64,000 bases of DNA, taken from an uncultured Pseudomonadales bacterium. GTDB lineage: Bacteria; Patescibacteriota; Microgenomatia; UBA1400; PJMF01. Under the pieces are notes generated by a model that saw only the letters and a program-made list of their open reading frames with translations, had not been told where the DNA came from and ran no database searches. Location of the stretch: positions 5,669-69,668 of the forward strand of contig CAZSJW010000002.1 of assembly GCA_964607285.1 (NCBI GenBank), read 5' to 3'. Every line of letters starts with the position of its first letter. Position 1 is the stretch's first letter. Below are positions 7,334-24,736 of the stretch, piece after piece. The position numbers were made by a program, and so were the translations under genes.

Positions 7334-7882
7334 TTATAGCGACACCTCAATAACTTGAGATTGATGAGTTCTAATCAGAGTTGTGTTCTTGTAGAGCAGC
7401 ATAGCGGAAGGACTATCATGTCCACAAAAAATGTAACTTGGTTGTGTTCTATCAACATATGAGCGTACTGCCCGTGAGCCAACATGAACTTCGTCACCAG
7501 GTGTGTCTAATAAACCAAACGGAGCAGCGTGCAGTAAAAGTATGTCCACTCTGGGGAATTGACTCAAGTCGTTCTTTGCCTCTTCTTCACTAAACTGTGG
7601 ACCACCATTTTTTTTGTATCTTGGACAACCTTGATAACCACCAATGGTAATACCGTTCCACTGAACAACCTGTAAGTGAACATTCTGTATTCCTAACTGT
7701 TCTAAATACCCAGGTGTACAGTGGTTGCCATAAACGCCAAAGGAAGGCTTAGATGATAGTTCAGCCTGGATTTCAGTGAAATCATAAATTGATAGATCCC
7801 CAGTTGTAAATAATAAGTCAGCTTGGTGATAGCGGTCCCTGAGTTTTGGATCGTGCTGATCTGAGTAGTGGAGGATATTCAT
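7334..7882 (-). CDS. Calcineurin-like metallophosphoesterase
   Basis: Motifs HYSDQHD, TTGDLS and YGNHC in the expected D-x-H / GD / GNH order. Confidence 0.5.
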   Translation of the reverse strand: MNILHYSDQHDPKLRDRYHQADLLFTTGDLSIYDFTEIQAELSSKPSFGVYGNHCTPGYLEQLGIQNVHLQVVQWNGITIGGYQGCPRYKKNGGPQFSEEEAKNDLSQFPRVDILLLHAAPFGLLDTPGDEVHVGSRAVRSYVDRTQPSYIFCGHDSPSAMLLYKNTTLIRTHQSQVIEVSL

Positions 7883-7918
7883 ACAGGTACTGAATTGTGA
7901 TTACTATATTAGTTTAGG

Positions 7919-8185
7919 CTAGTCTTGATTTGTTCTATTTCGCCTATGCTCTTCTCTAGATTGCTTGATGAAGTCTTGGTGATTTGAATTGGGATCATAG
8001 TATCCTATGTCCTCCGTTGTCTCAGGATCACCCAAATACTTTTTATATAGAGCAGCTAGAAAAGGAAACCACCTGGTTGGCTCACGTGTGCGCTCTGTAT
8101 AGTTGTTCAGCCTAGAAGTTTCTTCGGGAGTGAGTTTACTCATAGGGTGCCCTGCAGGTGGGATTGTTCGTGTCAATGTGAACAA
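7919..8185 (-). CDS. Hypothetical small protein
   Basis: 88-aa ORF. Function cannot be inferred. Confidence 0.25.
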   Translation of the reverse strand: MFTLTRTIPPAGHPMSKLTPEETSRLNNYTERTREPTRWFPFLAALYKKYLGDPETTEDIGYYDPNSNHQDFIKQSREEHRRNRTNQD

Positions 8186-8247
8186 CGCTTATGTTATTAC
8201 GAACCAAATTATAGATGAATTCATCCAAACTATAAAGGATTGGCAGA

Positions 8248-8868
8248 TCATTTTTGCTGACTTTCGGTCTTTTCTGCCTCCTGCTTACGCACCAGCTTAT
8301 ACTTCTTAGAGTCTTTGTATAACGGATGATTCTCGTAATAACCACCTCCGCTGTTGTAATCTTTTACTTTTTCAGGAGTATCGAGAGGTATAAGAGTCAC
8401 TTCATCGCCTCCAGCAGTTTGTAATTCTATGTAATCACCCAAGAAATGCTTATTAAGAGCTTTATCGTAAGCGTATTTGTCCATGCCTTCAGTTGCATAT
8501 GGAATACGCCAAATTAAGTCGTGTGGACGTTTGTACTGCCTGTATTTAATCCCTGTCTCCTCATCAGTAAAATCCTCTATTTGTTTTACATATCCAGATT
8601 TGAGGTGTTTTTCAATGCCAATAAGGGAAAACTCCTCTCTTGCTTTGGCATCGGCAGCAGAATAGGCATCAGTTAATACTTTCATTTTTAGCCATACCCA
8701 GTCACCCTCGCCTTCATTTAGTTGTTTCCAAACTTTCTCTTGCTGTTCTTTTGTACCGTTGGTGAGAAGGTGAACTATGGATTTGTAGATTTCATCAAAG
8801 GAATATTTAGGAGTTGTTGCATCATCATTTGTCTTAGTTGTAACAGGTTTGGCTTTCTGTTTTCTCAT
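8248..8868 (-). CDS. Hypothetical protein at the distal end of the R-M operon
   Basis: 206 aa, charged and Lys-rich, same strand as the upstream operon and separated from it by 10 nt. No motif recognised. Confidence 0.35.
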   Translation of the reverse strand: MRKQKAKPVTTKTNDDATTPKYSFDEIYKSIVHLLTNGTKEQQEKVWKQLNEGEGDWVWLKMKVLTDAYSAADAKAREEFSLIGIEKHLKSGYVKQIEDFTDEETGIKYRQYKRPHDLIWRIPYATEGMDKYAYDKALNKHFLGDYIELQTAGGDEVTLIPLDTPEKVKDYNSGGGYYENHPLYKDSKKYKLVRKQEAEKTESQQK

Positions 8869-8878
8869 AATGCTGACT

Positions 8879-9448
8879 TTAACTGACGGTCATACCTTTT
8901 GATTTCAAATCTTTAACAAGCTCTGCGTAATTAGGGAGTATTGATGCCACCAGATTCCAGTACCTCCTTGAATGACTGAACTCTTTAAGATGGCATAGCT
9001 CATGCACGACTATGTAATCTGCTAAGTGATCAGGTAATAATACAATTCTCCAATTAAAGTTAAGGTTTCTTTTCTTTGAACAGCTTCCCCAGCATGTTTT
9101 TTGATCCTTGATAGTAATCTCATTAAATTTAACTTTCAATTTCCTGTTAAAGCGTTTTACTTTCTTCTCAACTACTTCTAAGGCTTTTACTCTCAGTGCT
9201 TTATCATCCATGTCCGTAATAATTTGAGGCTGGTTCTTATGCAAATCTTCAAAAAAATCCATTTTCTCCAATACCCAGCGTGATTTTTGCACAAGGTACT
9301 GATCAATATTATTTTCTCTGAGGTGATTTGGGGCTGTAACTACGAAGTCCCCAGTGCAATAGACAGTAAGACGCATCCTCTTTGCTCTCTGGCTACGCTT
9401 GAGGGTGTATGCAACTTCCCGATTGTGTAGCAATATTTGTTTTTGCAT
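8879..9448 (-). CDS. DUF45 / YgjP-like (WLM/SprT-like) zinc metallohydrolase, commonly linked to hsdR
   Basis: HExxH motif in VVHELCHLKEFSHSRRYW. The start overlaps the hsdR stop (9448). This family typically follows type I hsdR genes. Confidence 0.65.
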   Translation of the reverse strand: MQKQILLHNREVAYTLKRSQRAKRMRLTVYCTGDFVVTAPNHLRENNIDQYLVQKSRWVLEKMDFFEDLHKNQPQIITDMDDKALRVKALEVVEKKVKRFNRKLKVKFNEITIKDQKTCWGSCSKKRNLNFNWRIVLLPDHLADYIVVHELCHLKEFSHSRRYWNLVASILPNYAELVKDLKSKGMTVS

Positions 9449-12357
9449 TAGAATCTCTTGATAACAATATCAATCAGTCTATTTAGATATTTAGAAAAGT
9501 CCTCAATAGTAATCTTGCCTTTATATTCTTTCAATAGTATCTCTTGTAGAGTTTTCTTGGCACTTTTCAAAAACTCCTCACGTTTTGACGAGTTCTGCCA
9601 TCCTTCATCAAGGATATTCGAAAGTCTATTGTCGATATCTTGCACCATTTCTATGAGCAAAGGTTGTGCAGCATCCTTGATAAACTCCTGCGAGATCACA
9701 AATAGTCCATATTCTCGCAAGTCCAATCCAAGTGCTTTTGCCTCGTCTGCTTTGCCTTTGATGTCATTAAGTAACTCGTAATATCTCTTTATTCTTTCAG
9801 ATAAGTCGATTTGCTGGTTCTCAAACTCCTTTTTAATTGCTGATAGTCTTTCGCTAAACTTAGAAAAGACAGGGTTTGTTTCGACATTGATTGAGATTTC
9901 TTGCTTAATTATTTTCTCCAAGTTTCGAGCTTTTTCATCATCATCCATTTTGTCTAAGCGTTCCAAAGTGTAAAGATCATTTACTTTCAATTCTCGGAAG
10001 TTACGAGTAATTCCTTCATAATCAATTCGCTCTTGTATGAGAGTCTTAACCTTCTCTCCATACTCAGCCAGCATTTCATGGTCAATGCCTTGACTCTTAA
10101 ACTCTTTTACAAAAGCTAAATAGAAACTTGTTATCCATTCAAATTTACGAAGATATTGGGACAAGAATGGATCAGGAGACAGGATTTCAAAAAGCAACTT
10201 CAGCCTACTATATTTGTCAGAGAAAAACTGTTGTTTACGTTCGTTGTCTGTAAATATCTTTAACGAGCGTCTCAGGTTGTCCATTGATGGGTCTTCAATG
10301 TTTATTCCAACGAAAAGATCCATTACTTCACCCAATACTTTGACAAATTCCTCTTTAAGTTTGTCGATATTGAGCATGGCTGAATCAACGATACTTTCGT
10401 CAAAGTTCAACGCATCGTAGAGATTCTTGGTAATTCCGTAATAGTCGATGATTCTTCCGCATCCTTTGTTGGGATACACACGATTGGTACGAGCTATTGC
10501 TTGAAGTAGATTATGATCACGCAAAGGTTTGTCCAGATACATGACTTGTTCAATCGGTGCATCAAAACCTGTTAGAAGCATGTCACAAACCAACAAAAAT
10601 TTGAGCGGACTGTTTGGGTCTTTGAATCGATTGATAATCTTTTCTCGTTCTCGTTTATTTGTGTTGTAGGCTTTTAAGTTATCACTGTCACTATTTGGAT
10701 CGCCAGGAGAGTACACAACTTCTGACCATTCTGGAGAGGTGAGTTGATCAATGAGTGCTTTGTACTTAGCTGTCGTTTCTCGGTCATAACACACGATCTG
10801 AGCTTTGAATCCATTAGGTTCAACGTATAATCGATAATGCTCAACAATATCTCGGGCGACTGCCTCCATTCGTTTGTCGAGTTTCACGAGAGCTTCTTTT
10901 TTACCAAACTTACGCATGAGTATATCTTTTTGCTCTTGGGTTAAATCCGTTGTCATTTCATCAAACTGTTGATCAACTTTCTGTTCATCGATAAAGAATT
11001 TAGAAAGTCTTGCCTCATATGTAACAGGAAGGGTTGCACCATCATCAATAGCTTGCTGAATCGAATAGTAGTCCAAGTATCTTTCACCATCTTGTCCGAA
11101 GTTCCGATGCGTATTGAGAGATGCTTTATCTATTGGAGTACCAGTAAAACCAAAGAAGAAAGCATGCTCCATTGAAGTACGCAAGTTAATCGCAGAAACA
11201 CCCTCATTATCTCGGTGTGCTTCATCTGAAAGAACAATGATATTCTCATTAAGATTTTCAATATCCTTACCAAGTTCCGTGAATTTCTGAATGGTAGAAA
11301 TAAAAATACCTCGCTCAGAATTAAAGATTTTTTGCTCCAAGTCTCGTCTTGAAGTTACTCGAATTACGTTTTTACCACCACAGTTTGTAAAGGTGTCGTA
11401 TATCTGATCATCCAGATCAATACGATCAACCAAAACAAATACTTTTGGATTCTTCAATTCCTTATCAAAGCGTAGTTTCCATGCTGTAAAGAACATGGTT
11501 AAACTTTTACCTGATCCTTGAGTATGCCAAATGAGTCCACGTTTCTTTTCGCCAGCTTTCACACGCTCTACTATTTTGTTTGCAGCTCTTAATTGCTGGT
11601 ATCGGGCAATCTTTTTTATAGTCGATTCTTTTTCCTTTTCAAAGACTATAAAGTTGCTGACAATATCTAACAACCTTTCAGGCTCTAAAAGAGCTACCAG
11701 AGTCATCTCAAGCTGTCCACCAGCCTTTTGTTCGAGTTCTTCATCCTTCCACTGTTGGAAGTACTGTGCTGGAGCATAGGTAGCACCATAAACCGATTTT
11801 AAGCCATCTGTCGCTATGTTATAGCAGTTTGGCCAGAATAGTCTCTGAGCGTTCTTTTCATATCGCTTGAGTTGCCCAACAGCTTTTGAATAATCTACTG
11901 ATTGGCCAGCAGTAGGACTTTTGGCTTCAATATCGACAAGTGGGATACCATTCACAAACACCATAATGTCTGGGCGTATATTCTCAAGATTTCCTTCAAA
12001 ATAGAACTGATTTGTTACTACGAATCGATTGTTGCTTGGGTTATCGAGATCGACTACCAGATAATCACGCATCTTTCCTGTTCGTGGATCTTTAAGGTTT
12101 ACGCCATTGCGATAGAGTTTTAAGAACCCTTCATTTGTGTCGATCTTTTTGACTTCTCGAACAACACCCATTGCTTCATCTTCATCGATATCGTTGATTT
12201 TCTTAATTGCCTCGAGAAGATGAGGTGTAATCACGAACTCTGTCTCAAACTCACGCAACCTACTGAAGACCTCTGGTTTAATATACTCATATCCCAGAGA
12301 TTGAGATAGATATTTGATTATGTGATTTTCGACTGTGTACTGTTCGTTAAATTTCAT
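9448..12357 (-). CDS. hsdR: Type I restriction enzyme R subunit (HsdR)
   Basis: 969 aa. SF2 helicase motif I HTQGSGKSLTMFF and DEAH box LSDEAHRDNEG, with the C-terminal helical region typical of HsdR. Embedded in an hsdM/hsdS operon. Confidence 0.9.
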   Translation of the reverse strand: MKFNEQYTVENHIIKYLSQSLGYEYIKPEVFSRLREFETEFVITPHLLEAIKKINDIDEDEAMGVVREVKKIDTNEGFLKLYRNGVNLKDPRTGKMRDYLVVDLDNPSNNRFVVTNQFYFEGNLENIRPDIMVFVNGIPLVDIEAKSPTAGQSVDYSKAVGQLKRYEKNAQRLFWPNCYNIATDGLKSVYGATYAPAQYFQQWKDEELEQKAGGQLEMTLVALLEPERLLDIVSNFIVFEKEKESTIKKIARYQQLRAANKIVERVKAGEKKRGLIWHTQGSGKSLTMFFTAWKLRFDKELKNPKVFVLVDRIDLDDQIYDTFTNCGGKNVIRVTSRRDLEQKIFNSERGIFISTIQKFTELGKDIENLNENIIVLSDEAHRDNEGVSAINLRTSMEHAFFFGFTGTPIDKASLNTHRNFGQDGERYLDYYSIQQAIDDGATLPVTYEARLSKFFIDEQKVDQQFDEMTTDLTQEQKDILMRKFGKKEALVKLDKRMEAVARDIVEHYRLYVEPNGFKAQIVCYDRETTAKYKALIDQLTSPEWSEVVYSPGDPNSDSDNLKAYNTNKREREKIINRFKDPNSPLKFLLVCDMLLTGFDAPIEQVMYLDKPLRDHNLLQAIARTNRVYPNKGCGRIIDYYGITKNLYDALNFDESIVDSAMLNIDKLKEEFVKVLGEVMDLFVGINIEDPSMDNLRRSLKIFTDNERKQQFFSDKYSRLKLLFEILSPDPFLSQYLRKFEWITSFYLAFVKEFKSQGIDHEMLAEYGEKVKTLIQERIDYEGITRNFRELKVNDLYTLERLDKMDDDEKARNLEKIIKQEISINVETNPVFSKFSERLSAIKKEFENQQIDLSERIKRYYELLNDIKGKADEAKALGLDLREYGLFVISQEFIKDAAQPLLIEMVQDIDNRLSNILDEGWQNSSKREEFLKSAKKTLQEILLKEYKGKITIEDFSKYLNRLIDIVIKRF

Positions 12358-12908
12358 ATTTTTGATTTTTTAATATGCAAGCTGTCAGGCAATAATTGAT
12401 CAATTTCTTTATCGCTGAAAGTAAGTTCCTCGTTAAGTTGTAAAGCCTCCTGGGCTTTTTTATATGCCTTGCTACTTGTGGTTGGGGCAGATTTGTAAAT
12501 AATATCAAGTTCACAGATAAGTTCGTCTCTTCGTTTTATAATGGTATCCTGCTTAATGGAGGAGTTGATAATATCGGCCATCAAACAGACATATTTCTCA
12601 CGAACAAGCCAAAGAGAATTAGCCGCTAACTTATGCCTTGCTGATTGTTTTTCTGGATCAAAACTTAATTGAAAAATACTGAAGCCGAGAGTAATAGCTG
12701 AAAAGATAGCGCTGACAACCAAAAGTTGCTGATCACCAAACACTGTGCTTAACAGTGTCCCTGAAGTAATCCCGATCAGAAGGATATTGATCCACTTGAC
12801 CCTTGAAGCATTTTCGCTTTGCATTTCTGCATCTTTTTCATGGGTCTTATGCGAATAGCAGACTCTACCGAATGATTCTCTAATTATTTTTAGGTTTGTT
12901 GTATCCAT
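12354..12908 (-). CDS. Two-TM hairpin protein with a helical C-terminus (SLATT-like candidate effector partner of the upstream nucleotidyltransferase)
   Basis: 184 aa. Helices LLIGITSGTLLSTVF and LLVVSAIFSAITLGFSIFQLSF are separated by only GDQQ, then ~100 aa of predicted helix. Four-nt overlaps with both neighbours. Confidence 0.45.
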   Translation of the reverse strand: MDTTNLKIIRESFGRVCYSHKTHEKDAEMQSENASRVKWINILLIGITSGTLLSTVFGDQQLLVVSAIFSAITLGFSIFQLSFDPEKQSARHKLAANSLWLVREKYVCLMADIINSSIKQDTIIKRRDELICELDIIYKSAPTTSSKAYKKAQEALQLNEELTFSDKEIDQLLPDSLHIKKSKI

Positions 12909-12912
12909 AAAA

Positions 12913-14163
12913 CTATTTAATGTTTATAAAAAACTTTCCACTTCTTGCCACGCAGACTTCATTTTGTACGATAAAACACTCAACCCAGTGTTTGCCCTGA
13001 TAAAGGGTACTTTCCCATCGAATTTGATTACCAAGAAAGATTTTTCCTCGTAATCCATTTGCTAATAATGCTTCCTGTCCTGTATTTACTACTTGCCAAA
13101 AATACTGAAAGTCACCAGTTGCATTAGTTGTGGCTATATACTTTAAGGACAAGTGTTTTTGTATATTCCTTCCATTTGAGTTTATTCCACCGAACTTTGT
13201 TGTCTTACTTTGATTGTAAATATAAGCATCAATACTAACTCTGCTTCTGTCCACAAAACTCCACTTTAACGGCTCAAAGTGTGAATAATCAGCAAGTGCA
13301 GGTGTCTCACTATCAACGAGTGAGGCAGATTTTTGAAGATGAGCAGGAAAATCACCTCCAAATACTTTTCTCCATTCTTCAACAGCGCTCTCTGGTTTAT
13401 CATTTGCTTCAAATTCACACGCTTTTTTAGCTCTACTCAAAGCGGTATCTAAATGGCTTTTTATATCACTATTTGTTTCGTTTTGGCTAAAATACTCATA
13501 GAAGTCCCGTACCAAGACGGGGTATTCTTTTTCTGAAAATGTTTGGTCACCAAAATAGTCAACTATTTTATTTTCAATCAAATATGACTTCATTTTGATA
13601 GAGCAGCATTCTGTCCATTTCTTAATCATGCGAACCATTGACCTGCTTCTTCCAGTTTTGGCATCTGAATCTTTTATCTTTTTTATCTCAGCTCGAGGAT
13701 CCCATTGTTCCCAGAAACCACCATTCTCTGAATTAGGAATAGTGAATGTCCCGTCTGTGTTTTCCCATGCAGGCAGAAGTTCTACCTGATGATGTGTATC
13801 TGAAAATTCTAATACCACCACCTTACCCCAAGCTTTTATGGGTGTGTTGGGATACTTTTCTTCCAGTATCTTTTTGATATCCTGAAGTAATTGTGATTGT
13901 CCATTTGATTGATTGTCGTTGTACTGATTGTACCTTTCTGGAGGCATAAAAAAGATAACATCAATATCCCTTGCTGGTCTGATATTGGTTTTCTTTCCGT
14001 AAGAGCCGATAAGTAATTTTGTTGATCCGTCATATTCTGTAGTGTAATAGTGGTCGTGTAGCTTGCTGCAAACACCATCATATTTAATCTTGGCATCCTC
14101 AATCTGCCCAGAGGTAAGTTTTATATTTTCAAGAAATTGATTGAAATGATCGTTGATTGGCAT
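12913..14163 (-). CDS. cGAS/DncV-like nucleotidyltransferase (CD-NTase / SMODS-type minimal NTase fold)
   Basis: 416 aa. hGS-x11-DhD motif in LLIGSYGKKTNIRPARDIDVIFFMP and a third acidic strand QVELLPAWE (h[DE]hhPA) about 65 aa later, followed by a ~200-aa C-terminal helical region. Confidence 0.5.
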   Translation of the reverse strand: MPINDHFNQFLENIKLTSGQIEDAKIKYDGVCSKLHDHYYTTEYDGSTKLLIGSYGKKTNIRPARDIDVIFFMPPERYNQYNDNQSNGQSQLLQDIKKILEEKYPNTPIKAWGKVVVLEFSDTHHQVELLPAWENTDGTFTIPNSENGGFWEQWDPRAEIKKIKDSDAKTGRSRSMVRMIKKWTECCSIKMKSYLIENKIVDYFGDQTFSEKEYPVLVRDFYEYFSQNETNSDIKSHLDTALSRAKKACEFEANDKPESAVEEWRKVFGGDFPAHLQKSASLVDSETPALADYSHFEPLKWSFVDRSRVSIDAYIYNQSKTTKFGGINSNGRNIQKHLSLKYIATTNATGDFQYFWQVVNTGQEALLANGLRGKIFLGNQIRWESTLYQGKHWVECFIVQNEVCVARSGKFFINIK

Positions 14164-14164
14164 A

Positions 14165-15325
14165 TTAGTTCACTTCGACCTTTCCGTTAAAAATGTCATC
14201 CATAAGACCTTTTTTCAGAATAAGTAACTGTCGCTTATTTGCTTTTTCGATTGCCACTTTTGAATCAATGCAACTTAAAATATTGGCCACTTTAATTTGT
14301 ACGTCCATTGGAGGTATAGGTATATCTATTTGTTTTAACACCTTCGCCTTTATCCCTTTTACAGTGCCTCCTGTAGCCAGTGATGCAATTTTTTCCTGTA
14401 AAGCATTACTGATAAGCAAATATTTCAGATATGTTGAGTCTAAATCTTCTTTTGGTTGAATAATAATAATTCTTTGAGCAAACGCGACTTTTTCTGTTAA
14501 TCCCAATTGAGCAACATTCCCGAGAGGAGCTTCTGTGGTAAAAAGTACATCGCCTTTTTTAGGAATGCCCCTGGTCATCCATGTTTCGTAATTATCTGCT
14601 TGAATGAATTCTCTTGGCTCAGGATCAACATAACCCATGCGTACATTTTTTGCAGTTATAAGAGGAATACCGTATTCTGTTTTTTTAGGTGTCTTACCTC
14701 TGTAATCAATAAAGTGAGTTGCTTCACCAAGTTTCTGAGTCTTCCATGTAATACTTTCTTCAACAAATAGTTCTTTGATCACACCTTTTTTTAAAAGTTC
14801 AGTTTTTTGAATAATTTGATCAGTTTTAGAGATTTGTTGGTCTATAGAGGTGAAGACTTTGCCATAGTACTCTTGGTTTTTATAAGCGGGTAAAGCAATT
14901 TGTATCGCTTTTAAATCTCCACTGTTGATTGCCGTAAAAGTCGATCCCTGAGAGACAGATGTAAATTGATTCTTAGAGAATTGCAGATAATAATTTAGGT
15001 AATCCTGAGATACATCCTTCTTTGCTCTTATACCTGCTAACCCTCGACCAAGACAGACAGAATTATTGATTGTGAATAGCTCGCCTACTGGAGCACGCAC
15101 TGTCATCAGTGCTGTCCCAGCTTCAACAACTCTTGTGGGTTCTGTTGTCCACTGGTTGGGAACAGCAGCTCCCATCGCATTTACAACAGGTGGTTTACCC
15201 TGAAGAAAGGGCACGCCTGCACCCTCAGCATTATAAGAAGATGAAGGAGGAGACTGTCCCATCGTTACAGTTGCCACTTCATCTAATCTTTTTACTATCC
15301 AGTCATTTGATAATTGGTTCTTCAT
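14165..15325 (-). CDS. hsdS: Type I R-M specificity subunit (HsdS)
   Basis: 386 aa. Two target-recognition-domain halves each beginning with the HsdS signature (LDEVATVTMGQSPPSSSYN...GVPFLQG and LGEATHFIDYRGKTPKK...GIPLITAKNV), separated by a central conserved helical spacer. Confidence 0.85.
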   Translation of the reverse strand: MKNQLSNDWIVKRLDEVATVTMGQSPPSSSYNAEGAGVPFLQGKPPVVNAMGAAVPNQWTTEPTRVVEAGTALMTVRAPVGELFTINNSVCLGRGLAGIRAKKDVSQDYLNYYLQFSKNQFTSVSQGSTFTAINSGDLKAIQIALPAYKNQEYYGKVFTSIDQQISKTDQIIQKTELLKKGVIKELFVEESITWKTQKLGEATHFIDYRGKTPKKTEYGIPLITAKNVRMGYVDPEPREFIQADNYETWMTRGIPKKGDVLFTTEAPLGNVAQLGLTEKVAFAQRIIIIQPKEDLDSTYLKYLLISNALQEKIASLATGGTVKGIKAKVLKQIDIPIPPMDVQIKVANILSCIDSKVAIEKANKRQLLILKKGLMDDIFNGKVEVN

Positions 15326-15798
15326 AGTAATGATGCCTTAAATATTGATCCGAACTCAGCTTTCAATAAGCTCTCGACAGTAACGTCATTCTTGATATTG
15401 AAATTAAAAGTGATATTAAAATCTCTTTTTTCCAGTTGTCCTCTTTCTATACCTTCAATCAGGTCAATACCTTGTGCGGTGATTTTAAAATCTCTCAAAT
15501 GTGATCCTCCGCTTATGTCTTTTACATCTTCATATGAGATAAGTCCTAATTCATTTAGATATGTTAATGCGTTAAAAAGATCCACATCACTGTATGTATT
15601 AAACTTTTCTTCTTTTAAGATACTTTCATTCCTTTGCTGCATTTCAATTCCTTCGATCTTTGTCTCAGGTGTAAGTTTCAGCCTAAAATTCAACATTGCA
15701 TAACTCAGATCAGTTACATTTTTTCTTTGCAAAAGATAAAAATATAAGAGAATTTCACCTGCAATTGTCTTTATTGGAACGATCCTTTTATTATTCAT
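15322..15798 (-). CDS. Hypothetical protein encoded between hsdM and hsdS (overlaps both)
   Basis: 158 aa. Start overlaps the hsdM stop by 8 nt and its stop overlaps the hsdS start by 4 nt. No motif recognised. Confidence 0.4.
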   Translation of the reverse strand: MNNKRIVPIKTIAGEILLYFYLLQRKNVTDLSYAMLNFRLKLTPETKIEGIEMQQRNESILKEEKFNTYSDVDLFNALTYLNELGLISYEDVKDISGGSHLRDFKITAQGIDLIEGIERGQLEKRDFNITFNFNIKNDVTVESLLKAEFGSIFKASLL

Positions 15799-17479
15799 AG
15801 CCTAATTCTTTTATAAACTTAGTTGTTTTTTCATCAATTACGCTTCGTTCTTGTTCGAGCTCCTGAAGCTCTTTCCACACCTGTTTAACATCTATTGCAA
15901 CTTGTTCCTCGTTGGAATCAATGTATCGTTTTACATTAAGGTTATAGTCGTTTTCTTCAAGTTCTTTTATGTCAACAACACGAGCATATTTCTCAACATC
16001 CTCGTATTTGTCATACGCTTTGATGATTTTTTCTATGTCTTGTTTTCGGAGAGAGTTTTGATTTTTTCCCTCCATGAAGTCATGCTCAGCATCAATAATT
16101 AAAATTTTATTTTTCTTATGCTCTGGTTTGTTCCTGTTAAGAATCCAAATAGCAGCAGGGATACCCGTTCCGTAAAAAAGTTTTGGCGGGAGAGCAACGA
16201 TAGCATCAACTAAATTGTGTTTAATAATCTGTTCTCTTATTCTGCCTTCACTGCCACCTCTGAAAAGCACACCATGAGGCAGTACAATGCCTGATCGACC
16301 ATTTGCGTTCATTGATCTAATAATGTGAAGTACAAAGGCAAAATCAGCATTTTTTTGAGGAGGAAGTTCGTAGTCATCAATCCTTCCATATCTGTCATTT
16401 CTAAATACATCAAACTCCCAGTCCTTAATAGAATAGGGGGGGTTGGCTACCACTATGTCGAAGGTCTGTAAGTTTCCTGATTCAGTGAGGAACTGTGGGT
16501 TTGCCAACGTGTCACCTCTGCGGATGTCCGCACTATCGAGTCCATGCAAGAACATGTTAATCTTCGCAATGGCAAATGTACCGATATTTACTTCTTGCCC
16601 ATAGAGATAGAGTGTACGAGCAACTGCCTCGCTAACTTTGCCTTTCAGATAACTGTACGCCTCAAGTAGAAATCCACCTGACCCAACTGTAGGATCGTAA
16701 ACATGATCCTTCTGATGTGGTTTTAGAATACCTATGATTACTCGCTCAACTTCTCGAGGGGTATAAAACTCCCCACCTTTTTTACCAGCATCAGCAGCAA
16801 ATTGCTTGATAAGGTATTCGTAAGCATCACCAAGTAAGTCAGAGCTAATGTAATTACTACCAAAATTGTACTGTGAGAAGTGGTTGAGAAGTTTTTGCAG
16901 TGTTTCGTTGGGGAAGCGGTCTTTGTTGGCAAAGTCCAGATCATCGAAAATACGATCCAGCTTTGGACTGTTTACATTAGCCAGTTTGTCAAAAATTTCA
17001 TTTAGTCTTTTTCCTATACCTTCTGACGTGTTTTCGATAGCTGACCACTTACAGTCTCGAGGAACTTGGAAACGATGGTTATAATCTGCTTCTGCCAGTG
17101 CAGGATTACCATATTCATCCATCACTTTTTTATATTCTTCGTCCCATACGTCACTGATCCGTTTATAGAAAAGAAGGCCAAAAATATACTTTTTATAGTC
17201 CGAGCTATCTATTTTTCCTCTTAGAATGTCTGCACTTTTCCAAAGAAATTGCTCAAGTTGAGCAAGAGTCAGCTTACTTCCTGCTTTTTCTATCAGAGTT
17301 TGAATGTCCTGTTTTCGGTATTTGCGGTCTTGGCGTGCACCAACTCTGAGGGGAACGAGTACTCCGCTCTTTTCCCAGTTACGAAGGGTATCTGGATGAA
17401 TGTTGAAGATTTTAGAAACTTCACCTATGGAAAGGAGATCAGCATTTTCTTCGAGTACCTTATTTGCGATTGTTTTCAT
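15791..17479 (-). CDS. hsdM: Type I R-M N6-adenine DNA methyltransferase (HsdM) with an N-terminal MerR/excisionase-type HTH
   Basis: MTase motif I DPTVGSGGFL and motif IV ANPPYS. N-terminal ~60 aa LSIGEVSKIFNIHPDTLRNWEKSGVLVPLRVGARQDRKYRKQDI resembles an HTH_17/MerR excisionase-type DNA-binding domain. Confidence 0.9.
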   Translation of the reverse strand: MKTIANKVLEENADLLSIGEVSKIFNIHPDTLRNWEKSGVLVPLRVGARQDRKYRKQDIQTLIEKAGSKLTLAQLEQFLWKSADILRGKIDSSDYKKYIFGLLFYKRISDVWDEEYKKVMDEYGNPALAEADYNHRFQVPRDCKWSAIENTSEGIGKRLNEIFDKLANVNSPKLDRIFDDLDFANKDRFPNETLQKLLNHFSQYNFGSNYISSDLLGDAYEYLIKQFAADAGKKGGEFYTPREVERVIIGILKPHQKDHVYDPTVGSGGFLLEAYSYLKGKVSEAVARTLYLYGQEVNIGTFAIAKINMFLHGLDSADIRRGDTLANPQFLTESGNLQTFDIVVANPPYSIKDWEFDVFRNDRYGRIDDYELPPQKNADFAFVLHIIRSMNANGRSGIVLPHGVLFRGGSEGRIREQIIKHNLVDAIVALPPKLFYGTGIPAAIWILNRNKPEHKKNKILIIDAEHDFMEGKNQNSLRKQDIEKIIKAYDKYEDVEKYARVVDIKELEENDYNLNVKRYIDSNEEQVAIDVKQVWKELQELEQERSVIDEKTTKFIKELGYE

Positions 17480-17853
17480 ATCTATATCTATATCTTCTCA
17501 TCCACTTGGGTGAGGGTTGAGTTAGAGTATAGTACTTAATTCGAAAAAAAGCAAGAGAAATGTTTCATAGGTTTTCATAGGTTAGTAAATACCTTCGTTT
17601 TTAGTACCCACATTAAAAAATGCGATATGGACTATCAAATCAACCCATGTGGACGACCCAATTTGACACAGTTTGTTCGGCTGTTACGCTATAACTATAC
17701 ACATTAAATAATTAAATTAGATTGATATGGCAATACAAAATAGAGATTATAAGAAAAAGAGAATTAGTAAACCTTCAGCTCTACTCTCCCAAGCAGAAAT
17801 TATCAGGAAGATCAACGCTTCGACCAGAAAATCAAAAAAGTATTTAGAGTTAC

Positions 17854-18789
17854 TTGCATGGAAATATGGAAAATAACCTTATTGTCATTAACCAAAATCA
17901 ACTGAATCCATTTGAATGGCCAGAGAAACTCTTTGACCACCTTGATGTCTCAGAAAATACTCGTCAAGAATATAGTTCAAGAGTCAAAGCATTCACGAGT
18001 TTCATTCAGAAACAAGGTTTTACCAAAAATAGTTACTTAGAATATAAGAGACACCTGTCGCAAAGAACAGATTTTAGTGTGAGTACCAAAAATAAGTACC
18101 TAATTGTGGCAAGAGTGTACTGCAAGGAACTGCATAGGCAAGGATATTTACCCATAGACATCACTCAGAACATCAAGTCATTCCAACAGTCAAGAAAACA
18201 TAAAAAGGATGGATTTTCGGAGGAAGAAGTACAAAAAATCCTCACTTATATTCAAGGTCAAGACAATAATAGAGACACCTGTCGCAAAAAAGCATTGTTA
18301 AGCCTGCTGATATTGCAAGGACTAAGGCAAATAGAGGTAGTTAGGCTGAATATAACTGAAGTAGATTTGGTTTCACAGGTTGCATTTGTTCGAGGCAAAG
18401 GACGAGATGATCTTGAATTGATTGATTTACACCCAGTCACAACATCAGCTCTCAAAGAGTACGTTAGACGGTACAGGATTGCAGATGGAGCGTTGTTTAC
18501 CAGCAGTAGCAATCGAAATAAACACCAGCGATTAGAAACAAGAACGATCAGCAACATTCTTAAACCTATTTTTCAGAATCTTGGCATAGGAAAAACTGTA
18601 CATGGTTTTCGCCATTACTTCACAACAAAGCTCATCCAAGCATATAAAGGTGATTTGCTTACTGTCGCCCAGTACACAAGGCATAAGAGTTTGGAAACAC
18701 TACAAATTTACAACGACAATATCAAAAGGAAGGAGGATTTACCAAGATATTATGAAACATTTGGCAGTATCAATTTTGAATCCAAATAA
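17854..18789 (+). CDS. Tyrosine site-specific recombinase (phage integrase / XerC-like family)
   Basis: 311 aa with an N-terminal SAM-like core-binding region. C-terminal catalytic signature R...HGFRHYFTT...LQIY (R-H-R-Y set). Divergent from hsdM. Confidence 0.8.
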   Translation: MHGNMENNLIVINQNQLNPFEWPEKLFDHLDVSENTRQEYSSRVKAFTSFIQKQGFTKNSYLEYKRHLSQRTDFSVSTKNKYLIVARVYCKELHRQGYLPIDITQNIKSFQQSRKHKKDGFSEEEVQKILTYIQGQDNNRDTCRKKALLSLLILQGLRQIEVVRLNITEVDLVSQVAFVRGKGRDDLELIDLHPVTTSALKEYVRRYRIADGALFTSSSNRNKHQRLETRTISNILKPIFQNLGIGKTVHGFRHYFTTKLIQAYKGDLLTVAQYTRHKSLETLQIYNDNIKRKEDLPRYYETFGSINFESK

Positions 18790-18834
18790 AGGCTCAATTA
18801 GAAATAATACTTATTACAAGTAATTCAAAAATCT

Positions 18835-19530
18835 ATGAAAACTAAACAACAAAAACATCCTATCATTCCAGTAGAAACCGAGGATACAAAACTAACGAGA
18901 TATCGAGGGTTTGAGTTAAGAACCAAAAATAACCTTCCACTGGATCAGTGTGTTTCTGCACTACAGAAGGCAATTCGGAGAGGTTTAGAAGATCGAGCCT
19001 TATATTTTATGCAGGAATTGATTGATAGTGGGTTCGTTAATTACTTTTGGAGAAGGATGTCCATAATAGTGCTTGAAGACATTGGGCTTTCTGATCCACA
19101 GGCAGTAATAATGATTAACTCCCTTGCTCAAATGAATGAGCGTTTGAACCATAAGAAAGAAATCAGAGACACCTATTGCCCTGGAATGGCAGTCTTGTAC
19201 TTATGTAGGGCAAGTAAGTCTCGAGAAGTAGATTATGCACTGGATTGGATAGACCTCAAACGAAAAGAAGGATTTACAATAGAGCCTGAAGATTATGATC
19301 AGGATTGTCATACCCATGTCGGTAGAGAAAAGTTAAAACAAACTGCAAAGGAGACTGGTAAAACGTATGACGATCTTGTGGATGAGAAGTTCTATTACGA
19401 AGGCATATTAGCCAACAATCCTGTTTCAGTACAAAAAGATCGATGGAAAAAGAAGGTCTGGGATATCCGCAAGCTTGATGAAAAGAAAATAAACCTTAAA
19501 TATGAGGTGGACGAACTAAAAGAGGTCTGA
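18835..19530 (+). CDS. Stand-alone MgsA/RarA C-terminal-domain protein; the AAA+ ATPase module is absent
   Basis: SALQKAIRRGLEDRALYFMQELIDSG...RRMSIIVLEDIGLSDPQAVIMINSLAQMNERL...MAVLYLCRASKSREV tracks the RarA C-terminal block (SALHKS.RGSD.DAALYWLARML..GED...RRL...ASEDIGLADP.AL...A...RLG...LA.AV.YLA.APKSN). No Walker A/B motifs anywhere in the 231 aa. Confidence 0.5.
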   Translation: MKTKQQKHPIIPVETEDTKLTRYRGFELRTKNNLPLDQCVSALQKAIRRGLEDRALYFMQELIDSGFVNYFWRRMSIIVLEDIGLSDPQAVIMINSLAQMNERLNHKKEIRDTYCPGMAVLYLCRASKSREVDYALDWIDLKRKEGFTIEPEDYDQDCHTHVGREKLKQTAKETGKTYDDLVDEKFYYEGILANNPVSVQKDRWKKKVWDIRKLDEKKINLKYEVDELKEV

Positions 19531-19743
19531 TAGTGGGAGTTTTAGATTCTTTGCAATTTTTTGCAGTACTTCAACTGATGGCGTGTTTCTTCCTTGTTCG
19601 ATAAAGCCCATATACTGCCTACTGACTTTAATTTTATCTGCCAATTCTTCTTGAGTAAGTCCTATCTCTTTTCTTTTTCTTTGAATACGCTTACCTAATT
19701 GCTTTGGGAGAGTTGCATTTTTTCTCATACCTTTATTATTCAA
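19516..19743 (-). CDS. XRE/Cro-C1 family HTH transcriptional regulator
   Basis: 75 aa. LTQEELADKIKVSRQYMGFIEQGRNTPSVEVLQKIAKNL is a classic HTH_3 signature. Confidence 0.75.
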   Translation of the reverse strand: MNNKGMRKNATLPKQLGKRIQRKRKEIGLTQEELADKIKVSRQYMGFIEQGRNTPSVEVLQKIAKNLKLPLSDLF

Positions 19744-19844
19744 GGTATGTGCTCAATATCCACTAACTGCCACTTAGCAATTAGCCTGGAAAACCCTTTA
19801 CTTTTGATAACTAACAGTTATAATGGTTTTATATAAAAATACCT

Positions 19845-20393
19845 ATGAAAAAAGCAGTTTTAATCGGTGCAGGCATTTTAATTTTGGTCAGTATCGCCAT
19901 CAACGCAAGTATTCCAACAATTAAGAAAACTATTCTCACGGGGATGGAACAGGGGAAAATCACAATGAAAAGTAATACTTCTCCAAAAAACAAAGAGGAT
20001 GAGATTGAAAAGGCAGTTAAATCAGTCATAGATGACAAGCACCTAAAAGAGTTTAGCGTTATTCCTTTGGAAGATGGTAAATTCAATGTCACCGTTGCAT
20101 TTTATGTAGACGATTCTCAGGATTTAGCTGCATCAGCAGTAAAGTTAAAAACAACAGAGGTATTTGCTTCACTGTTCATCAATGATGTGGGAGTTAATGA
20201 AGTATGGGCTTTCGCTTGGTATCCTTATCAAAGCTCAGATGCTCAAATGGTATTAAAGTCCAAAATGAATAAAGAGTTAGCTGATAAAGCGGAGCACAGT
20301 AGCAAGATGACATTTCAGTATGATGCTGAACGACTAATGATTATCGAAAAATCCTCCTATACAGAGCTCCCTGTAAGCGTAGTGACTCCATGA
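19845..20393 (+). CDS. Hypothetical secreted/membrane-anchored protein
   Basis: 182 aa with an N-terminal hydrophobic signal (AVLIGAGILILVSIAINA). No motif recognised. Confidence 0.4.
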   Translation: MKKAVLIGAGILILVSIAINASIPTIKKTILTGMEQGKITMKSNTSPKNKEDEIEKAVKSVIDDKHLKEFSVIPLEDGKFNVTVAFYVDDSQDLAASAVKLKTTEVFASLFINDVGVNEVWAFAWYPYQSSDAQMVLKSKMNKELADKAEHSSKMTFQYDAERLMIIEKSSYTELPVSVVTP

Positions 20394-20499
20394 CAAATCC
20401 AATTCAATTCCAATAAAAGCCCAATACACTCCAGTACAGACTCCAATAATGTGCAGAAAATAGTCCAATAAAAAGCGTCGTTACAGGGGTCTTGTCTTG

Positions 20500-20775
20500 G
20501 ATGATACCGACAGTTTAAGGCTAAAATTACACGCCTCTGTATTGGAGGGCGTACCAGTTTATTGGATGATTACTCTCCTACTCAGAGTTGCCAATACTAC
20601 AATCGCTCCATGACACTCCCTGCACAACACCCTAAAACATCCTGATTTCACCCTGAACAGCCACATTTTTACTCCATGACAAAATGACCAAAATCAGGTG
20701 AGTGTAGACGATTTTAAGGCTAAATCGATACCCACCTGTCATGGGTGAGTATTTTTGTCATGGGTCATTATAGGT
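20500..20775. repeat. Non-coding region with direct and inverted short repeats (iteron-like; candidate origin or operator region of the element)
   Basis: Direct repeats TTTAAGGCTAAAAT (20514) and TTTAAGGCTAAATC (20713). Paired TGTCATGGGT copies at 20737 and 20757. The reverse complement CCATGACA occurs at 20608 and 20675. Inverted arms CCTGATTT (20641) / AAATCAGG (20691) and CAGGTG / CACCTG are also present. Confidence 0.45.
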
Positions 20776-20996
20776 CTATTCTACTGTGACATTTAGGCTT
20801 TCTGCTCCTTACTACTACCTTTTTAGTATCTTATTGCTTGAGTAAGCAGTCTTTCTAAAAACAGTATTAGTGTATTGATAGAAAGGATTTTGTTTATAAC
20901 TCAAGGCTAATTTACCTGTTGGCAAAAAGGATTATCCACACATAGAAAGGCCAAATTATAAAATGATGTATTTTGATATAATTCCCTCATATTGAT

Positions 20997-21884
20997 ATGA
21001 ATATAAAACCGATAGAAATTGATATTGAGGATAAAAGGTTGTACGCACAAATAGCGTTCTTAGTAGATAGTCCAACCTTTATTGATCGTAATATCCAGAG
21101 CATCCGAAAGAGGTTCAAGATCGAGTCCACTTTTGAGGCTGATGACTTTAATTCATGGGAAAATCATATTCTCACACTTGCTGGATATAATCTCGAAGAG
21201 TATTGGACGATGGATAAAGTAGGCTCTAATGCTAAAAATCCAGACGATAACGAATGGAAAAGAAAAATACAGTGGTTAAGAAGTACCCAAGCCAACTTTC
21301 TTAAAAAAGCATCTATTCAAAAGGATTTTATGGAGTCGATAGTTAAATTGAGAAAATTACATAATTATCCCCCTCTCTTTGATTCAGTAATCCAACAAGC
21401 CGTTCTTTTTCATCGAGTAACACATTTCAAAACTGCTGTGGGTACAGTCAGCTATGACACTCTGCCAATTTCCTCAAATAGTGATGAGGCAGTTATGGCT
21501 ATTATTGTCACACCTTTTTCTACGCAAGAAGATATTTTGTCAGCCTTTAACGAAGCTAAAAAATTAAAACATGAGTACGTTTTTACGAACCCTTTGGATG
21601 AAAAATTAGGAAAAGATACCATCCCTAACATCAGGCGTGATCGCGAATGGTATTGGCAAATTTTTAATGGAAAAAGACAGCATGACATTGCAGTTTCTGA
21701 GAATAAAGGAGCTGCTTATTATGCTGATGTGAAGAAGAAAATGAAATTTGCAGGAGATTTGCCAGATAAACAAAGAGCTGAGTACGAAAGATACATTGAA
21801 TACATCCGCAACTATACGGAAACAATCCGTAAGGCTGTCAAAAGATACGAGAAGGAACTTCACCGCCACTTAGTCTCCTCGTAA
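20997..21884 (+). CDS. Hypothetical protein (element cargo)
   Basis: 295-aa ORF directly after the repeat region. No motif recognised. Confidence 0.35.
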   Translation: MNIKPIEIDIEDKRLYAQIAFLVDSPTFIDRNIQSIRKRFKIESTFEADDFNSWENHILTLAGYNLEEYWTMDKVGSNAKNPDDNEWKRKIQWLRSTQANFLKKASIQKDFMESIVKLRKLHNYPPLFDSVIQQAVLFHRVTHFKTAVGTVSYDTLPISSNSDEAVMAIIVTPFSTQEDILSAFNEAKKLKHEYVFTNPLDEKLGKDTIPNIRRDREWYWQIFNGKRQHDIAVSENKGAAYYADVKKKMKFAGDLPDKQRAEYERYIEYIRNYTETIRKAVKRYEKELHRHLVSS

Positions 21885-21948
21885 CTGTCATAATTTCATT
21901 TTCACCTTCCCTTGCTAATCTGTACTCATACCAAATTGAGCACAGATT

Positions 21949-22191: not shown

Positions 22192-22193
22192 CT

Positions 22194-22379: not shown

Positions 22380-22406
22380 CTCTGACGGATACAAATTGAA
22401 ATAAAC

Positions 22407-23179: not shown

Positions 23180-24736
23180 ATGAACACAACTAAACAAAAT
23201 ACTAAAATGAGAGCCTGTTTGTATTTAAGGTTCAGTGATCCTAAACAAATTGGCAATACAAGCTTTGAAACTCAAGAACAGCTTTGTAGAAATGCTTGTC
23301 TTGCTGACGGATTCGAGGTGACTGAAGTAGTAAGAAATGAAGCTGTCTCAGCAGATAAAAATAAAACAGCAAGAATTATTGAACTGTTAGACTTTTGCAA
23401 GAAAAACAAAAGTAAATTTGAAGTTTTAATGGTCTTCAAGCTGGATAGATTTGCCAGAGGTCAGGAACAGCATCACTGGCTAAGGGGTCAGCTTACAAAG
23501 CTTGGAATCATACTTCGTTCAGCTACAGAGCGCATTGATGAGTCCCCATCTGGAAAATTAGTTGAGGGTGTTCTGGCTGCTGTAAATGAGTACGACAACG
23601 AAGTTAAACGGGAAAGAGTCAAATTGGCTATGTGGGCAAGGGTCGAACAAGGTTTATGGCCATGGGGTGCACCCACAGGGTATAAGGATGTACATCAGGC
23701 AGGAGTAAAGCTATCTCCGAAAGCAAAAGACGATAATGTGTGGGAGATCGTAAAGACAGAGATTTTTGAAAAGTATGCGACAGGTGTCGTAAGAAAAACT
23801 GATATTGCAAAAGTGCTACAAAAAAGAAAGATAAAAAACAATAAAGGTAGAATTATTAGGTTCTCAGAGCAATCAATTGATAATATCCTCAACAATATTT
23901 TCTACACAGGATACTTGGTAAACAAAGAAGGAAAATTCATTAAAGGTTTACATCAGCCAATTATTGATATGACTTTATTCGAAAGATGTAAGCAAGTCCA
24001 AATAGGGTTATCTAACCATGCTACCCAGAAAAGACAATATAATCATCCCGACTTTCCTCTGCGTCGTTTTGTGCAATGTGGTGAGTGCGGTAAGCCATTT
24101 ACAGCGTGTTGGGCTAAGTCTGGTCGCTATCCCTACTACTATTGTCGGAATAAAGAATGTCCCAAATTTTCCGTAAGTGTAAAAAAGGCAGATATTGAAA
24201 ATGAATTTCTTTCATATGTAAAAAATGTGAAGCCTGTGGATGATCTTGTACCAATTTTTAATAAAGTTTTTATTAGAAAGTATGAGATTAGAGAGAAAGA
24301 AATTAAGGGTGACTATCTACATAAGCTCAATGAAATCAAGTTACTGACAGATCAAGAGGATTACTTTGTTCAAAGTGGGAGAGATAAGATATTGCCTCCA
24401 AATATCGTAAAAAAGAATGTTGAAGATTTGGAACAAAAAATTACCATAGCCAAAATTGGATTAACAGAGATACACGCAGAAGAACTGGATGTAAACGCTA
24501 TGCTTATATTTGCAAGGGATTTTATTCGAACGATTGAATTTACCTGGTACTACGCTCCAATTGAGTACAAAGTCAAACTACAAAGGGCAATTTTCCCTGA
24601 AGGGCTGAAGTACCATTTTACAGGCTTTTCGAACTCCAAAATATCCCGTCCATTCAAGCTAATCAATGAAGTAGTAGATAAAAATTCAAATGTTGTGAGC
24701 CGAGAGGGACTCGAACCCCCGACCAGAAAGGTATAA
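23180..24736 (+). CDS. Large serine recombinase (resolvase/invertase catalytic domain + recombinase domain + zinc ribbon)
   Basis: N-terminus ACLYLRFSDPKQ...FEVLMVFKLDRFARG is a resolvase catalytic domain with the Ser nucleophile in the R-F-S-D context. Cys cluster CGECGKPFTACW...YYYCRNKECP. The last 13 codons are the complement of the tRNA 3' half. Confidence 0.8.
   Translation: MNTTKQNTKMRACLYLRFSDPKQIGNTSFETQEQLCRNACLADGFEVTEVVRNEAVSADKNKTARIIELLDFCKKNKSKFEVLMVFKLDRFARGQEQHHWLRGQLTKLGIILRSATERIDESPSGKLVEGVLAAVNEYDNEVKRERVKLAMWARVEQGLWPWGAPTGYKDVHQAGVKLSPKAKDDNVWEIVKTEIFEKYATGVVRKTDIAKVLQKRKIKNNKGRIIRFSEQSIDNILNNIFYTGYLVNKEGKFIKGLHQPIIDMTLFERCKQVQIGLSNHATQKRQYNHPDFPLRRFVQCGECGKPFTACWAKSGRYPYYYCRNKECPKFSVSVKKADIENEFLSYVKNVKPVDDLVPIFNKVFIRKYEIREKEIKGDYLHKLNEIKLLTDQEDYFVQSGRDKILPPNIVKKNVEDLEQKITIAKIGLTEIHAEELDVNAMLIFARDFIRTIEFTWYYAPIEYKVKLQRAIFPEGLKYHFTGFSNSKISRPFKLINEVVDKNSNVVSREGLEPPTRKV

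Follow-up and report, generated by a model that had tools for sequence, protein, structure and literature searches.

Type I operons of the cyclic-oligonucleotide-based antiphage signalling system (CBASS) encode, in approximately 40% of the cases, a nucleotidyltransferase of the cGAS/DncV-like type (CD-NTase) fused to an AGS-C domain, which is immunoglobulin (Ig)-like, correlates with the phage families sensed, and is present in some branches of clades F and G and absent from others (bioRxiv 10.1101/2023.05.21.541620). Type I operons with SLATT effectors defend strongly, and E. coli screens validated SLATT effectors as well as AGS-C cyclases (bioRxiv 10.1101/2023.05.21.541620). Defence genes may also be embedded within other defence systems; in the 'guilt by embedding' survey, 96.7% of the embedded genes ran in the same direction as the system hosting them, and PrrC was found almost exclusively embedded in type I restriction-modification (R-M) systems (bioRxiv 10.1101/2024.01.29.577857). 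Here we analysed 64,000 nucleotides (hereafter the window; contig CAZSJW010000002.1 of assembly GCA_964607285.1, positions 5,669 to 69,668, GTDB lineage Patescibacteriota; Microgenomatia; UBA1400; PJMF01), in which hsdS and hsdR of a type I R-M operon are separated by a CD-NTase-AGS-C gene and a SLATT_4 gene. We consider it very probable that this pair is an autonomous type I CBASS cassette that occupies a known hsdS-hsdR slot, is co-transcribed with the R-M genes and is carried on a recombinase island.

Two described CBASS are closest to the pair. The lactococcal plasmid system pUCCL631_167/168 is a type I CBASS that is experimentally antiphage, with an abortive-infection (Abi)-like phenotype (PMC11381338); compared by architecture, it resembles the window pair in combining a SLATT of PF18186 (190 aa) with a CD-NTase bearing a C-terminal AGS-C (408 aa), but it stands alone on its plasmid and was reported not to be co-localised with other systems (PMC11381338). 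EcCdnF04-SLATT6 of E. coli is likewise a minimal operon of two genes, which encode a CD-NTase-AGS-C and a membrane effector of the SLATT class and give broad antiphage defence (bioRxiv 10.1101/2023.05.21.541620); it differs in its effector (SLATT6, vs. SLATT_4 in the window), in its gammaproteobacterial hosts and in that no R-M embedding was reported for it. The split between branches with and without AGS-C, known from clades F and G, is seen again within the locus family of the window.

With regard to its position, the locus is most similar to the RRDM island of enteropathogenic E. coli (EPEC), where the order is rptR-hsdM-hsdS-darT-darG-hsdR-M48 peptidase and the site was called a potential recombination hotspot for defence systems (PMC12255303). 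Both have co-oriented cargo between hsdS and hsdR, an M48/YgjP-type peptidase after hsdR and a helix-turn-helix (HTH) regulator at the 5' end; the EPEC cargo, however, is the toxin-antitoxin system DarTG2, and RptR is a separate small protein, whereas the MerR-type HTH of the window is fused to HsdM. On VPI-2 of V. cholerae, TgvAB works alone and the whole R-M cluster protects somewhat more strongly, and RloF in C. jejuni is cited in the same study as embedded in type I R-M (PMC11411939). TgvAB is, like the window pair, a two-gene defence system inside a type I R-M cluster, but it represents GmrSD-like type IV restriction of modified DNA and not signalling or abortive infection. A further parallel is PrrC, an abortive-infection effector encoded between the hsd genes of the EcoprrI locus; the R-M enzyme keeps this anticodon nuclease physically masked, and an anti-restriction peptide of the phage activates it, a coupling that is not evident for the mostly free-standing CBASS of the window.

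The two genes of the pair and their immediate neighbours are the following (window coordinates).

14163..12913, minus strand: CD-NTase (CBASS cyclase) gene, 416 aa, ATG start (Pfam SMODS and AGS_C, PADLOC PDLC00796, AlphaFold2 (AF2), Foldseek)
12908..12354, minus strand: SLATT_4 two-transmembrane effector gene, 184 aa, ATG start (Pfam/NCBIfam SLATT_4, PADLOC PDLC00696, hydropathy, AF2)
15325..14165, minus strand: hsdS, type I specificity subunit with two target-recognition domains (Pfam Methylase_S 1.1e-35, 2 stretches)
12357..9448, minus strand: hsdR, type I restriction/translocase subunit (Pfam HSDR_N, SWI2_SNF2, ResIII, T1R_D3-like, T1RH-like_C)

Profile matches and the modelled fold identify the 416-aa protein as a CD-NTase fused to AGS-C, for which product synthesis is predicted. 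It matched Pfam SMODS (PF18144) over the whole profile (1.2e-33, 117 bits vs. a cutoff of 26.5), Pfam AGS_C at residues 293-416 (1.3e-27, 96.8 bits) and 35 PADLOC oligonucleotide-cyclase models, the best of them over the full length (PDLC00796, 2.3e-91). As it reached 106 bits vs. a cutoff of 200 for the NCBIfam equivalog CBASS_cyclase_b, it is not an equivalog of that subfamily; the only NCBIfam matches outside CBASS, to an archaeal CCA-adding nucleotidyltransferase (NTase) and to the DS2_2 antiphage NTase, were marginal, with scores well short of the respective cutoffs. The catalytic motif runs from G53-S54 over 11 residues to D66-I67-D68, and E128 belongs to the later segment QVELLPAWE. Among 30 aligned homologues (50-81% identity), G53, S54, D66 and D68 were invariant and E128 was at least 90% conserved. 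The closest solved chains by sequence are P. aeruginosa CdnD entries (2e-8), and E128 aligns with the catalytic Asp of the PaCdnD segment 'VDAVPAF'.

The AF2 model of the cyclase, built on the 30-homologue alignment (mean predicted local distance difference test score, pLDDT, 88.1), has an NTase core and helical lobe at residues 1-272 and, after a linker that is disordered (276-291), an all-beta AGS-C (approximately 293-416) with ten beta strands at residues 309-415. In a Foldseek search of this model against the PDB, PaCdnD was the top match (6p82, E 3e-17, TMt 0.76), which makes a clade D enzyme the closest solved structure, and the other top structures were EcCdnC, BfCdnB, EcCdnD, DncV, CdnG, CdnE and cGAS. 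There was no non-cyclase NTase among the top 50 matches; AbiEii/DUF1814, antibiotic NTases, CCA-adding enzymes and generic Pol-beta classes, which had been considered for this protein, are absent from them and were rejected. AGS-C has been reported to be absent from clade D type I cyclases (bioRxiv 10.1101/2023.05.21.541620). According to a 2026 preprint (PMC12991175), an internal loop of approximately 30 residues lets the clade A, D and G CD-NTases detect the prohead proteases of phages. A protease-cleavable activation loop of the EcCdnG type was also considered for the window cyclase and rejected, as the model has no internal disordered loop and disorder is confined to the linker at 276-291.

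By its family matches and its model, the 184-aa protein is a SLATT_4 two-transmembrane effector with a predicted transmembrane hairpin and a cytoplasmic helical domain. It covers positions 3-165 of the 165 in Pfam SLATT_4 (PF18186; 5.3e-56, 189 bits vs. a cutoff of 27) and also matches NCBIfam SLATT_4 (NF033632; 3.7e-40, 137 bits, cutoff 55) and the PADLOC 2TM CBASS effector PDLC00696 (6.6e-65). Kyte-Doolittle peaks lie at residues 39-58 and 62-82, with the four-residue turn GDQQ between them, and the all-alpha AF2 model (pLDDT 88.2) has helices at 3-57 and 60-82, with the hairpin at 58-59, followed by 85-114 and 120-140. No Cap2, Cap3, HORMA or TRIP13 gene adjoins the pair, and the neighbouring 158-aa, YgjP-like and 206-aa products gave no PADLOC match. 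The pair is therefore classified as a type I CBASS of the AGS-C/SLATT architecture already known and validated elsewhere, and by analogy it would be antiphage here as well.

The three gene junctions are tight. The stop codon of hsdS (TAA) and the ATG of the cyclase are separated by a single T (1-nt gap), the stop codon of the cyclase (TAG) and the ATG of the SLATT gene by tttt (4-nt gap), and the end of the SLATT gene overlaps the start of hsdR by 4 nt, in ATGA. These gaps and this overlap indicate that the cassette is probably co-transcribed, and probably also translationally coupled, with the hsd genes. The GC content of the two genes (0.36-0.38) is the same as that of their flanks. A first-pass annotation of the window, made by a model from the sequence alone, had already proposed these elements, i.e., two co-oriented genes between hsdS and hsdR with gaps or overlaps of 1-4 nt, a GS-x11-DID motif with a later QVELLPAWE strand of the cGAS/DncV/SMODS cyclases, and a SLATT-type two-transmembrane hairpin followed by a helical region; the profile searches, the conservation of the motif, both structure models and the junctions bear it out.

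If the pair works as an autonomous type I CBASS, its cyclase, a CD-NTase bearing an Ig-like AGS-C, would be held inactive until a phage-derived cue is perceived, and the cued cyclase would make a cyclic oligonucleotide that activates the SLATT_4 protein, by which the membrane would be compromised and the infection aborted. Restriction would then be the first line against incoming unmodified DNA and abortive infection by CBASS the backup against escaping phages, and co-transcription would mean that both are inherited and expressed together. Nucleotide signalling, membrane disruption, antiphage function and co-transcription are all deduced here from the protein families and from the published related systems.

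Relatives of the cyclase were collected by an alignment-based scan of genome contigs, dereplicated to species (51 loci), and a metagenome scan with HsdR yielded 80 operons (L058-L137; L-numbers are labels of relative loci). At least 8 further loci (L052, L053, L054, L056, L057, L032, L033, and L007) have the pair in the hsdS-hsdR interval, so that the pairing is not a one-off insertion, a doubt that the first-pass annotation had itself raised. The closest cyclase homologues with long contigs (L052-L054; 81%, 72%, and 72% identity) share the arrangement of the window in three of three cases, with the order MerR-HsdM, 0-3 small open reading frames (ORFs), HsdS, cyclase(AGS_C), SLATT_4, and HsdR, and with YgjP next in L052 and L053. 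In L056 and L057 (HsdR 96-97% identical to that of the window) and in L032 and L033 (71-73%) the SLATT_4 is 60-74% identical to that of the window, and the cyclase is short (291 aa), lacks AGS-C and reaches only 48% identity over residues 1-272. L007, from a WWE3 genome, is a divergent type I operon (HsdR 35% identical) that embeds a long cyclase and a SLATT. The records of the nearest relatives are mostly named Patescibacteria/CPR (candidate phyla radiation), i.e., Roizmanbacteria, WWE3, Parcubacteria, and Saccharibacteria.

Most copies of the pair stand outside R-M operons. A cyclase followed by a SLATT was found in 43 of the 51 species-level loci, with hsdS and hsdR on either side in only three of these 43 and a type I system 3 kb away in one more; approximately 90% of the species-level loci showing the pair hold it outside any R-M operon. 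Free-standing pairs are also located on plasmids of cultured bacteria (Rhodococcus, Aliivibrio, and others). On plasmid p1 of the cultured strain Microcystis aeruginosa NIES-2481 (L139, NZ_CP025929.1:41333-53908), a 293-aa short cyclase and a SLATT_4 are embedded between genes for a type IIG/DrmMI-like methyltransferase (1124 aa) and an HKD+Snf2 (DrmD-like) helicase (1094 aa), all of them co-oriented, with a ZorA-like MotA protein encoded downstream. As side observations, two tandem cyclase genes precede the SLATT in L002 (9956-12694), and in L013, L014, and L019 a short cyclase ORF is followed by approximately 600 nt, possibly a split or frameshifted AGS-C domain, and then by the SLATT.

This distribution bears on a rival explanation modelled on PrrC, in which the CBASS would be silenced by the R-M complex, or would monitor it, and would fire once a phage anti-restriction factor puts HsdR/HsdM out of action or on DNA fragments produced by restriction, so that the embedding would mark a functional dependency. 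Beyond the precedent of PrrC, which is almost exclusively embedded in type I R-M, the tight gene junctions speak for it, as does the independent embedding of the same CBASS subtype in the methylase/helicase module of the Microcystis plasmid and in the divergent type I operon of L007. The near-exclusive occurrence inside hsd loci that characterises PrrC is, however, not seen for the pair (3 of 43 species-level loci embedded, with approximately 90% lacking an R-M neighbour), and type I CBASS operons defend alone in heterologous hosts, which together leave such a guard unlikely. The related proposition that in this R-M lineage the SLATT_4 CBASS is a restriction guard that senses failure or overload of DNA-targeting immunity, e.g., via anti-restriction proteins or restriction products, is in our view similarly improbable; if true, it would describe a cyclic-nucleotide analogue of PrrC or PARIS.

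The history of the cassette was reconstructed from rough neighbour-joining trees of the cyclases and SLATTs. Embedded cyclases fall in three separate clades: the long cyclases of the window and L052-L054 sit among free-standing long forms, the short ones of L032, L033, L056, and L057 group with the free-standing L037, near Streptomyces enzymes, and that of L007 is placed with L009. A single clade, by contrast with the cyclases, unites the SLATTs of every embedded locus of this R-M lineage and of L037, regardless of the cyclase partner. The window SLATT is 71-75% identical to those of L052-L054, L056, L057, and L032, 60% identical to that of L033 and 59-60% identical to the SLATTs of the free-standing long-cyclase loci L001 and L016; for the cyclase the pattern is reversed, with 65-67% identity to L001 and L016 and 48% to L056. 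At the nucleotide level, blastn homology between the window and L056/L057 starts exactly at the SLATT start codon (12910), and the DNA identity of 60-72% in the SLATT gene vs. 86-96% in hsdR indicates that the cyclase exchange was not recent. We infer from these patterns that the scaffold kept its effector lineage and that the cyclase was exchanged jointly with hsdS, which is the opposite of the more commonly noted effector shuffling. If so, cyclases of both clades should make a signal that SLATT_4 can read. Close SLATTs paired with distant cyclases, with and without AGS-C, also constitute a natural experiment that could define the role of AGS-C and the SLATT_4 signal.

The single SLATT clade, formed whatever the cyclase partner, would also suit a guard tied to the R-M enzyme; on the other hand, an exchange of cyclases between distant clades, with and without AGS-C, is hard to square with a specific Hsd interface. 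The same exchange pattern raises a different alternative, namely that the pair is a decaying or inactive passenger, carried along with hsdS when specificities are swapped. The joint exchange of hsdS and cargo between conserved hsdM and hsdR flanks is what this would predict, but both ORFs are intact and full length relative to the profiles, the catalytic residues and 33 SLATT positions are invariant among homologues of 50-80% identity, and both AF2 models are confident, so that we give it almost no credence.

The autonomous-cassette reading is further informed by what else the R-M lineage carries. The operon scaffold consists of MerR-HsdM, slot A, HsdS, slot B, HsdR, and the YgjP peptidase. 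The 80 metagenomic operons belong to the same R-M lineage (HsdR 61-77% identical), and none of them (0/80) has a SLATT_4 CBASS in the slot. Both hsdS and hsdR can be seen in 59 of them, and in 48 of these 59 the two genes are separated by cargo of 450-3000 nt, belonging to approximately 45 sequence families, with all substantial cargo ORFs co-oriented. Annotated cargo includes Shedu SduA (at least 6 loci), AAA_15/AriA-like and AAA_13 ATPases, AbiEii, Abi_alpha, AbiLi, Fic, HEPN_Apea, PADLOC 'PDC' candidate families, and IS200 transposases. A second type of CBASS occupies the slot in L075 (2884-4427) and L124 (4287-5827), where a 313-aa NTase that matches PADLOC cyclase models is combined with a 201-aa Cap15 (Cap15_CD_rec, Cap15_TM); it is a second, independent CBASS capture by the same R-M lineage. 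The hsdM-hsdS interval is a second variable slot, of 0-2.8 kb among the relatives, and houses a 158-aa ORF in the window. The locus reveals a type I R-M lineage that has two hypervariable slots and seems to be common among Patescibacteria-like genomes.

More than half of the slot cargo families had no Pfam or PADLOC match (e.g., L058:954-2117, L076:414-1250, L082:5314-6018, and L077:7165-7998), and these unannotated families are a ready list for guilt-by-embedding discovery in organisms with poorly known immunity.

The turnover of the cargo is most directly seen in L055, whose HsdR and YgjP (both 99%), 206-aa product (96%), and HsdM (90%) are near-identical to those of the window and whose slot holds two unrelated genes. 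DNA homology between the two loci ends in the 3' end of hsdM (15870) and resumes at 12367, 10 nt before the hsdR ATG, and HsdS is only 24-51% identical among otherwise near-identical operons. That near-identical R-M operons scaffold unrelated cargo or none is a further point against a dedicated guard. Cassette turnover and the many free-standing copies together argue that the pair is an autonomous module. Co-orientation with the host system, alternative cargo in homologous operons and free-standing occurrence, by which embedding is recognised, are all found here.

In L055 itself (7736-9995), the slot encodes an unannotated 432-aa coiled-coil protein, with marginal SMC/JetC-like matches, and a protein of approximately 319-328 aa, a relative of which is present in the same slot of L064; by its embedding, this two-gene cassette is a candidate new defence pair.

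These results revise statements of the first-pass annotation. It had taken the hsdS-hsdR interval of type I operons to be normally empty, which is contradicted for this lineage by the cargo in 48 of 59 related operons and in general by DarTG2, TgvAB, and PrrC; since the slot is known and heavily used, the placement of the CBASS is not anomalous. It had suggested a hybrid immune locus coupling restriction with abortive-infection signalling, of which the genetic linkage and probable co-transcription stand, while no evidence of mechanistic coupling between R-M and CBASS was found. Finally, it was aware of no characterised example, for which DarTG2 (PMC12255303), TgvAB (PMC11411939), and PrrC provide analogues; what still holds is that no mention of CBASS as type I R-M cargo was found in the literature searched, including the supplements of bioRxiv 10.1101/2024.01.29.577857, which is not proof of absence. 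Mechanistically, the locus adds little, as a standard type I CBASS is found where defence cargo is expected. It is an incremental addition that documents CBASS, with two effector types, as hsdS-hsdR cargo, of which no description was found in the literature searched.

The operon appears to be mobile. Divergent from hsdM lie a tyrosine recombinase gene and genes for an MgsA_C-domain protein and an HTH_3 protein, all in positions kept in L052, L055, and L056, and a serine recombinase gene overlaps a tRNA gene farther on.

17854..18789, plus strand: tyrosine recombinase, divergent from hsdM (Pfam Phage_integrase 1.7e-20; same position in L052, L055, L056)
23180..24736, plus strand: large serine recombinase, 3' end overlapping the tRNA-Ile(TAT) gene (Pfam Resolvase, Recombinase, Zn_ribbon_recom)
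24695-24768, minus strand: tRNA-Ile with the rare anticodon TAT, 3' end overlapped by the serine recombinase ORF (Rfam)

Serine recombinases adjoin the operon in L052-L054 and L056 too, and homology with the relatives stops at approximately 8177. The recombinases, the tRNA overlap and this end of homology indicate that the operon is part of a mobile island of approximately 16 kb (approximately 8177-24768), with tRNA-Ile(TAT) as the likely integration site and the serine recombinase as the probable island end. Between the island ends, a search for att sites found no shared repeat of at least 10 bp and no second copy of the tRNA 3' half; Rfam reported only tRNA-Ile in the window.

On such an island, the pair could conceivably serve as a toxin-like addiction module that mainly stabilises the island or the R-M operon. 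The presence of both tyrosine and serine recombinases would suit such a role, as would the toxin-antitoxin-like and Abi cargo (AbiEii, Fic) that shares the slot and the Phd-like antitoxin gene that adjoins the free-standing copy on the Rhodococcus plasmid. We nevertheless regard this as very unlikely, because the pair has no antitoxin-like partner, experiments have shown type I CBASS operons of two genes to be antiphage, addiction by type I R-M is not strong, and the catalytic and signalling architecture is conserved.

Several points weigh against an autonomous, co-transcribed type I CBASS cassette. The third catalytic acid of the cyclase is a Glu and not the usual Asp, though it is conserved, and the AF2 model of this protein lacks the internal activation loop of approximately 30 aa present in clades A, D, and G. 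For the SLATT model, Foldseek returned nothing significant from the PDB (best E 0.08), there being no solved SLATT structure, and pore formation is for this reason presumed. A promoter and terminator scan of the locus gave counts at or below the shuffled expectation and was uninformative. Lastly, more than hitch-hiking may lie behind the persistence of one SLATT lineage in many operons of this R-M lineage.

ORF calling placed the cassette in a string of co-oriented minus-strand genes at 8.2-17.5 kb of the window, in the order hsdM, 158-aa ORF, hsdS, cyclase, SLATT_4, hsdR, YgjP-like, and 206-aa ORF. The members not listed so far are:

17479..15791, minus strand: hsdM methyltransferase with a MerR/HTH_17 fusion at the N-terminus (Pfam N6_Mtase 2.3e-109, HsdM_N, MerR_1 3.3e-10)
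15798..15322, minus strand: 158-aa ORF in the hsdM-hsdS interval, overlapping both neighbours (weak DUF2513 match, 0.0024, below cutoff)
9448..8879, minus strand: YgjP-like (M48-type) metallopeptidase, directly 3' of hsdR (Pfam YgjP-like 5.4e-44)
8868..8248, minus strand: 206-aa ORF (p206), last gene of the conserved block (no family match; homologues in L055-L057)

By Pfam, the type I R-M set is complete and in one operon, with HsdM, an HsdS with two target-recognition domains and an HsdR with nuclease, motor, and C-terminal domains. The HTH of HsdM spans residues 15-65 (window 17285-17437, minus strand) and the same fusion occurs in L052-L057. This domain may regulate its own operon, where the EPEC island has a separate regulator, RptR. 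The YgjP-like peptidase is a conserved companion of the R-M lineage, located 3' of hsdR in most relatives with contigs extending past hsdR (70 YgjP matches). For the 158-aa ORF there was no match among PADLOC or NCBIfam profiles, and the sole homologue found is in the same hsdM-hsdS slot of L077. The 206-aa ORF gave no match among Pfam, PADLOC, and NCBIfam profiles, and its copies in L055-L057 are 95-97% identical to that of the window.

Elsewhere in the window, a homologue of VirD4/TraD-like coupling proteins is encoded at 33396-35783 (minus strand), and an ATP-dependent DNA ligase of archaeal/eukaryotic type (TIGR00574, 1e-105) at 43759-45546 (minus strand).

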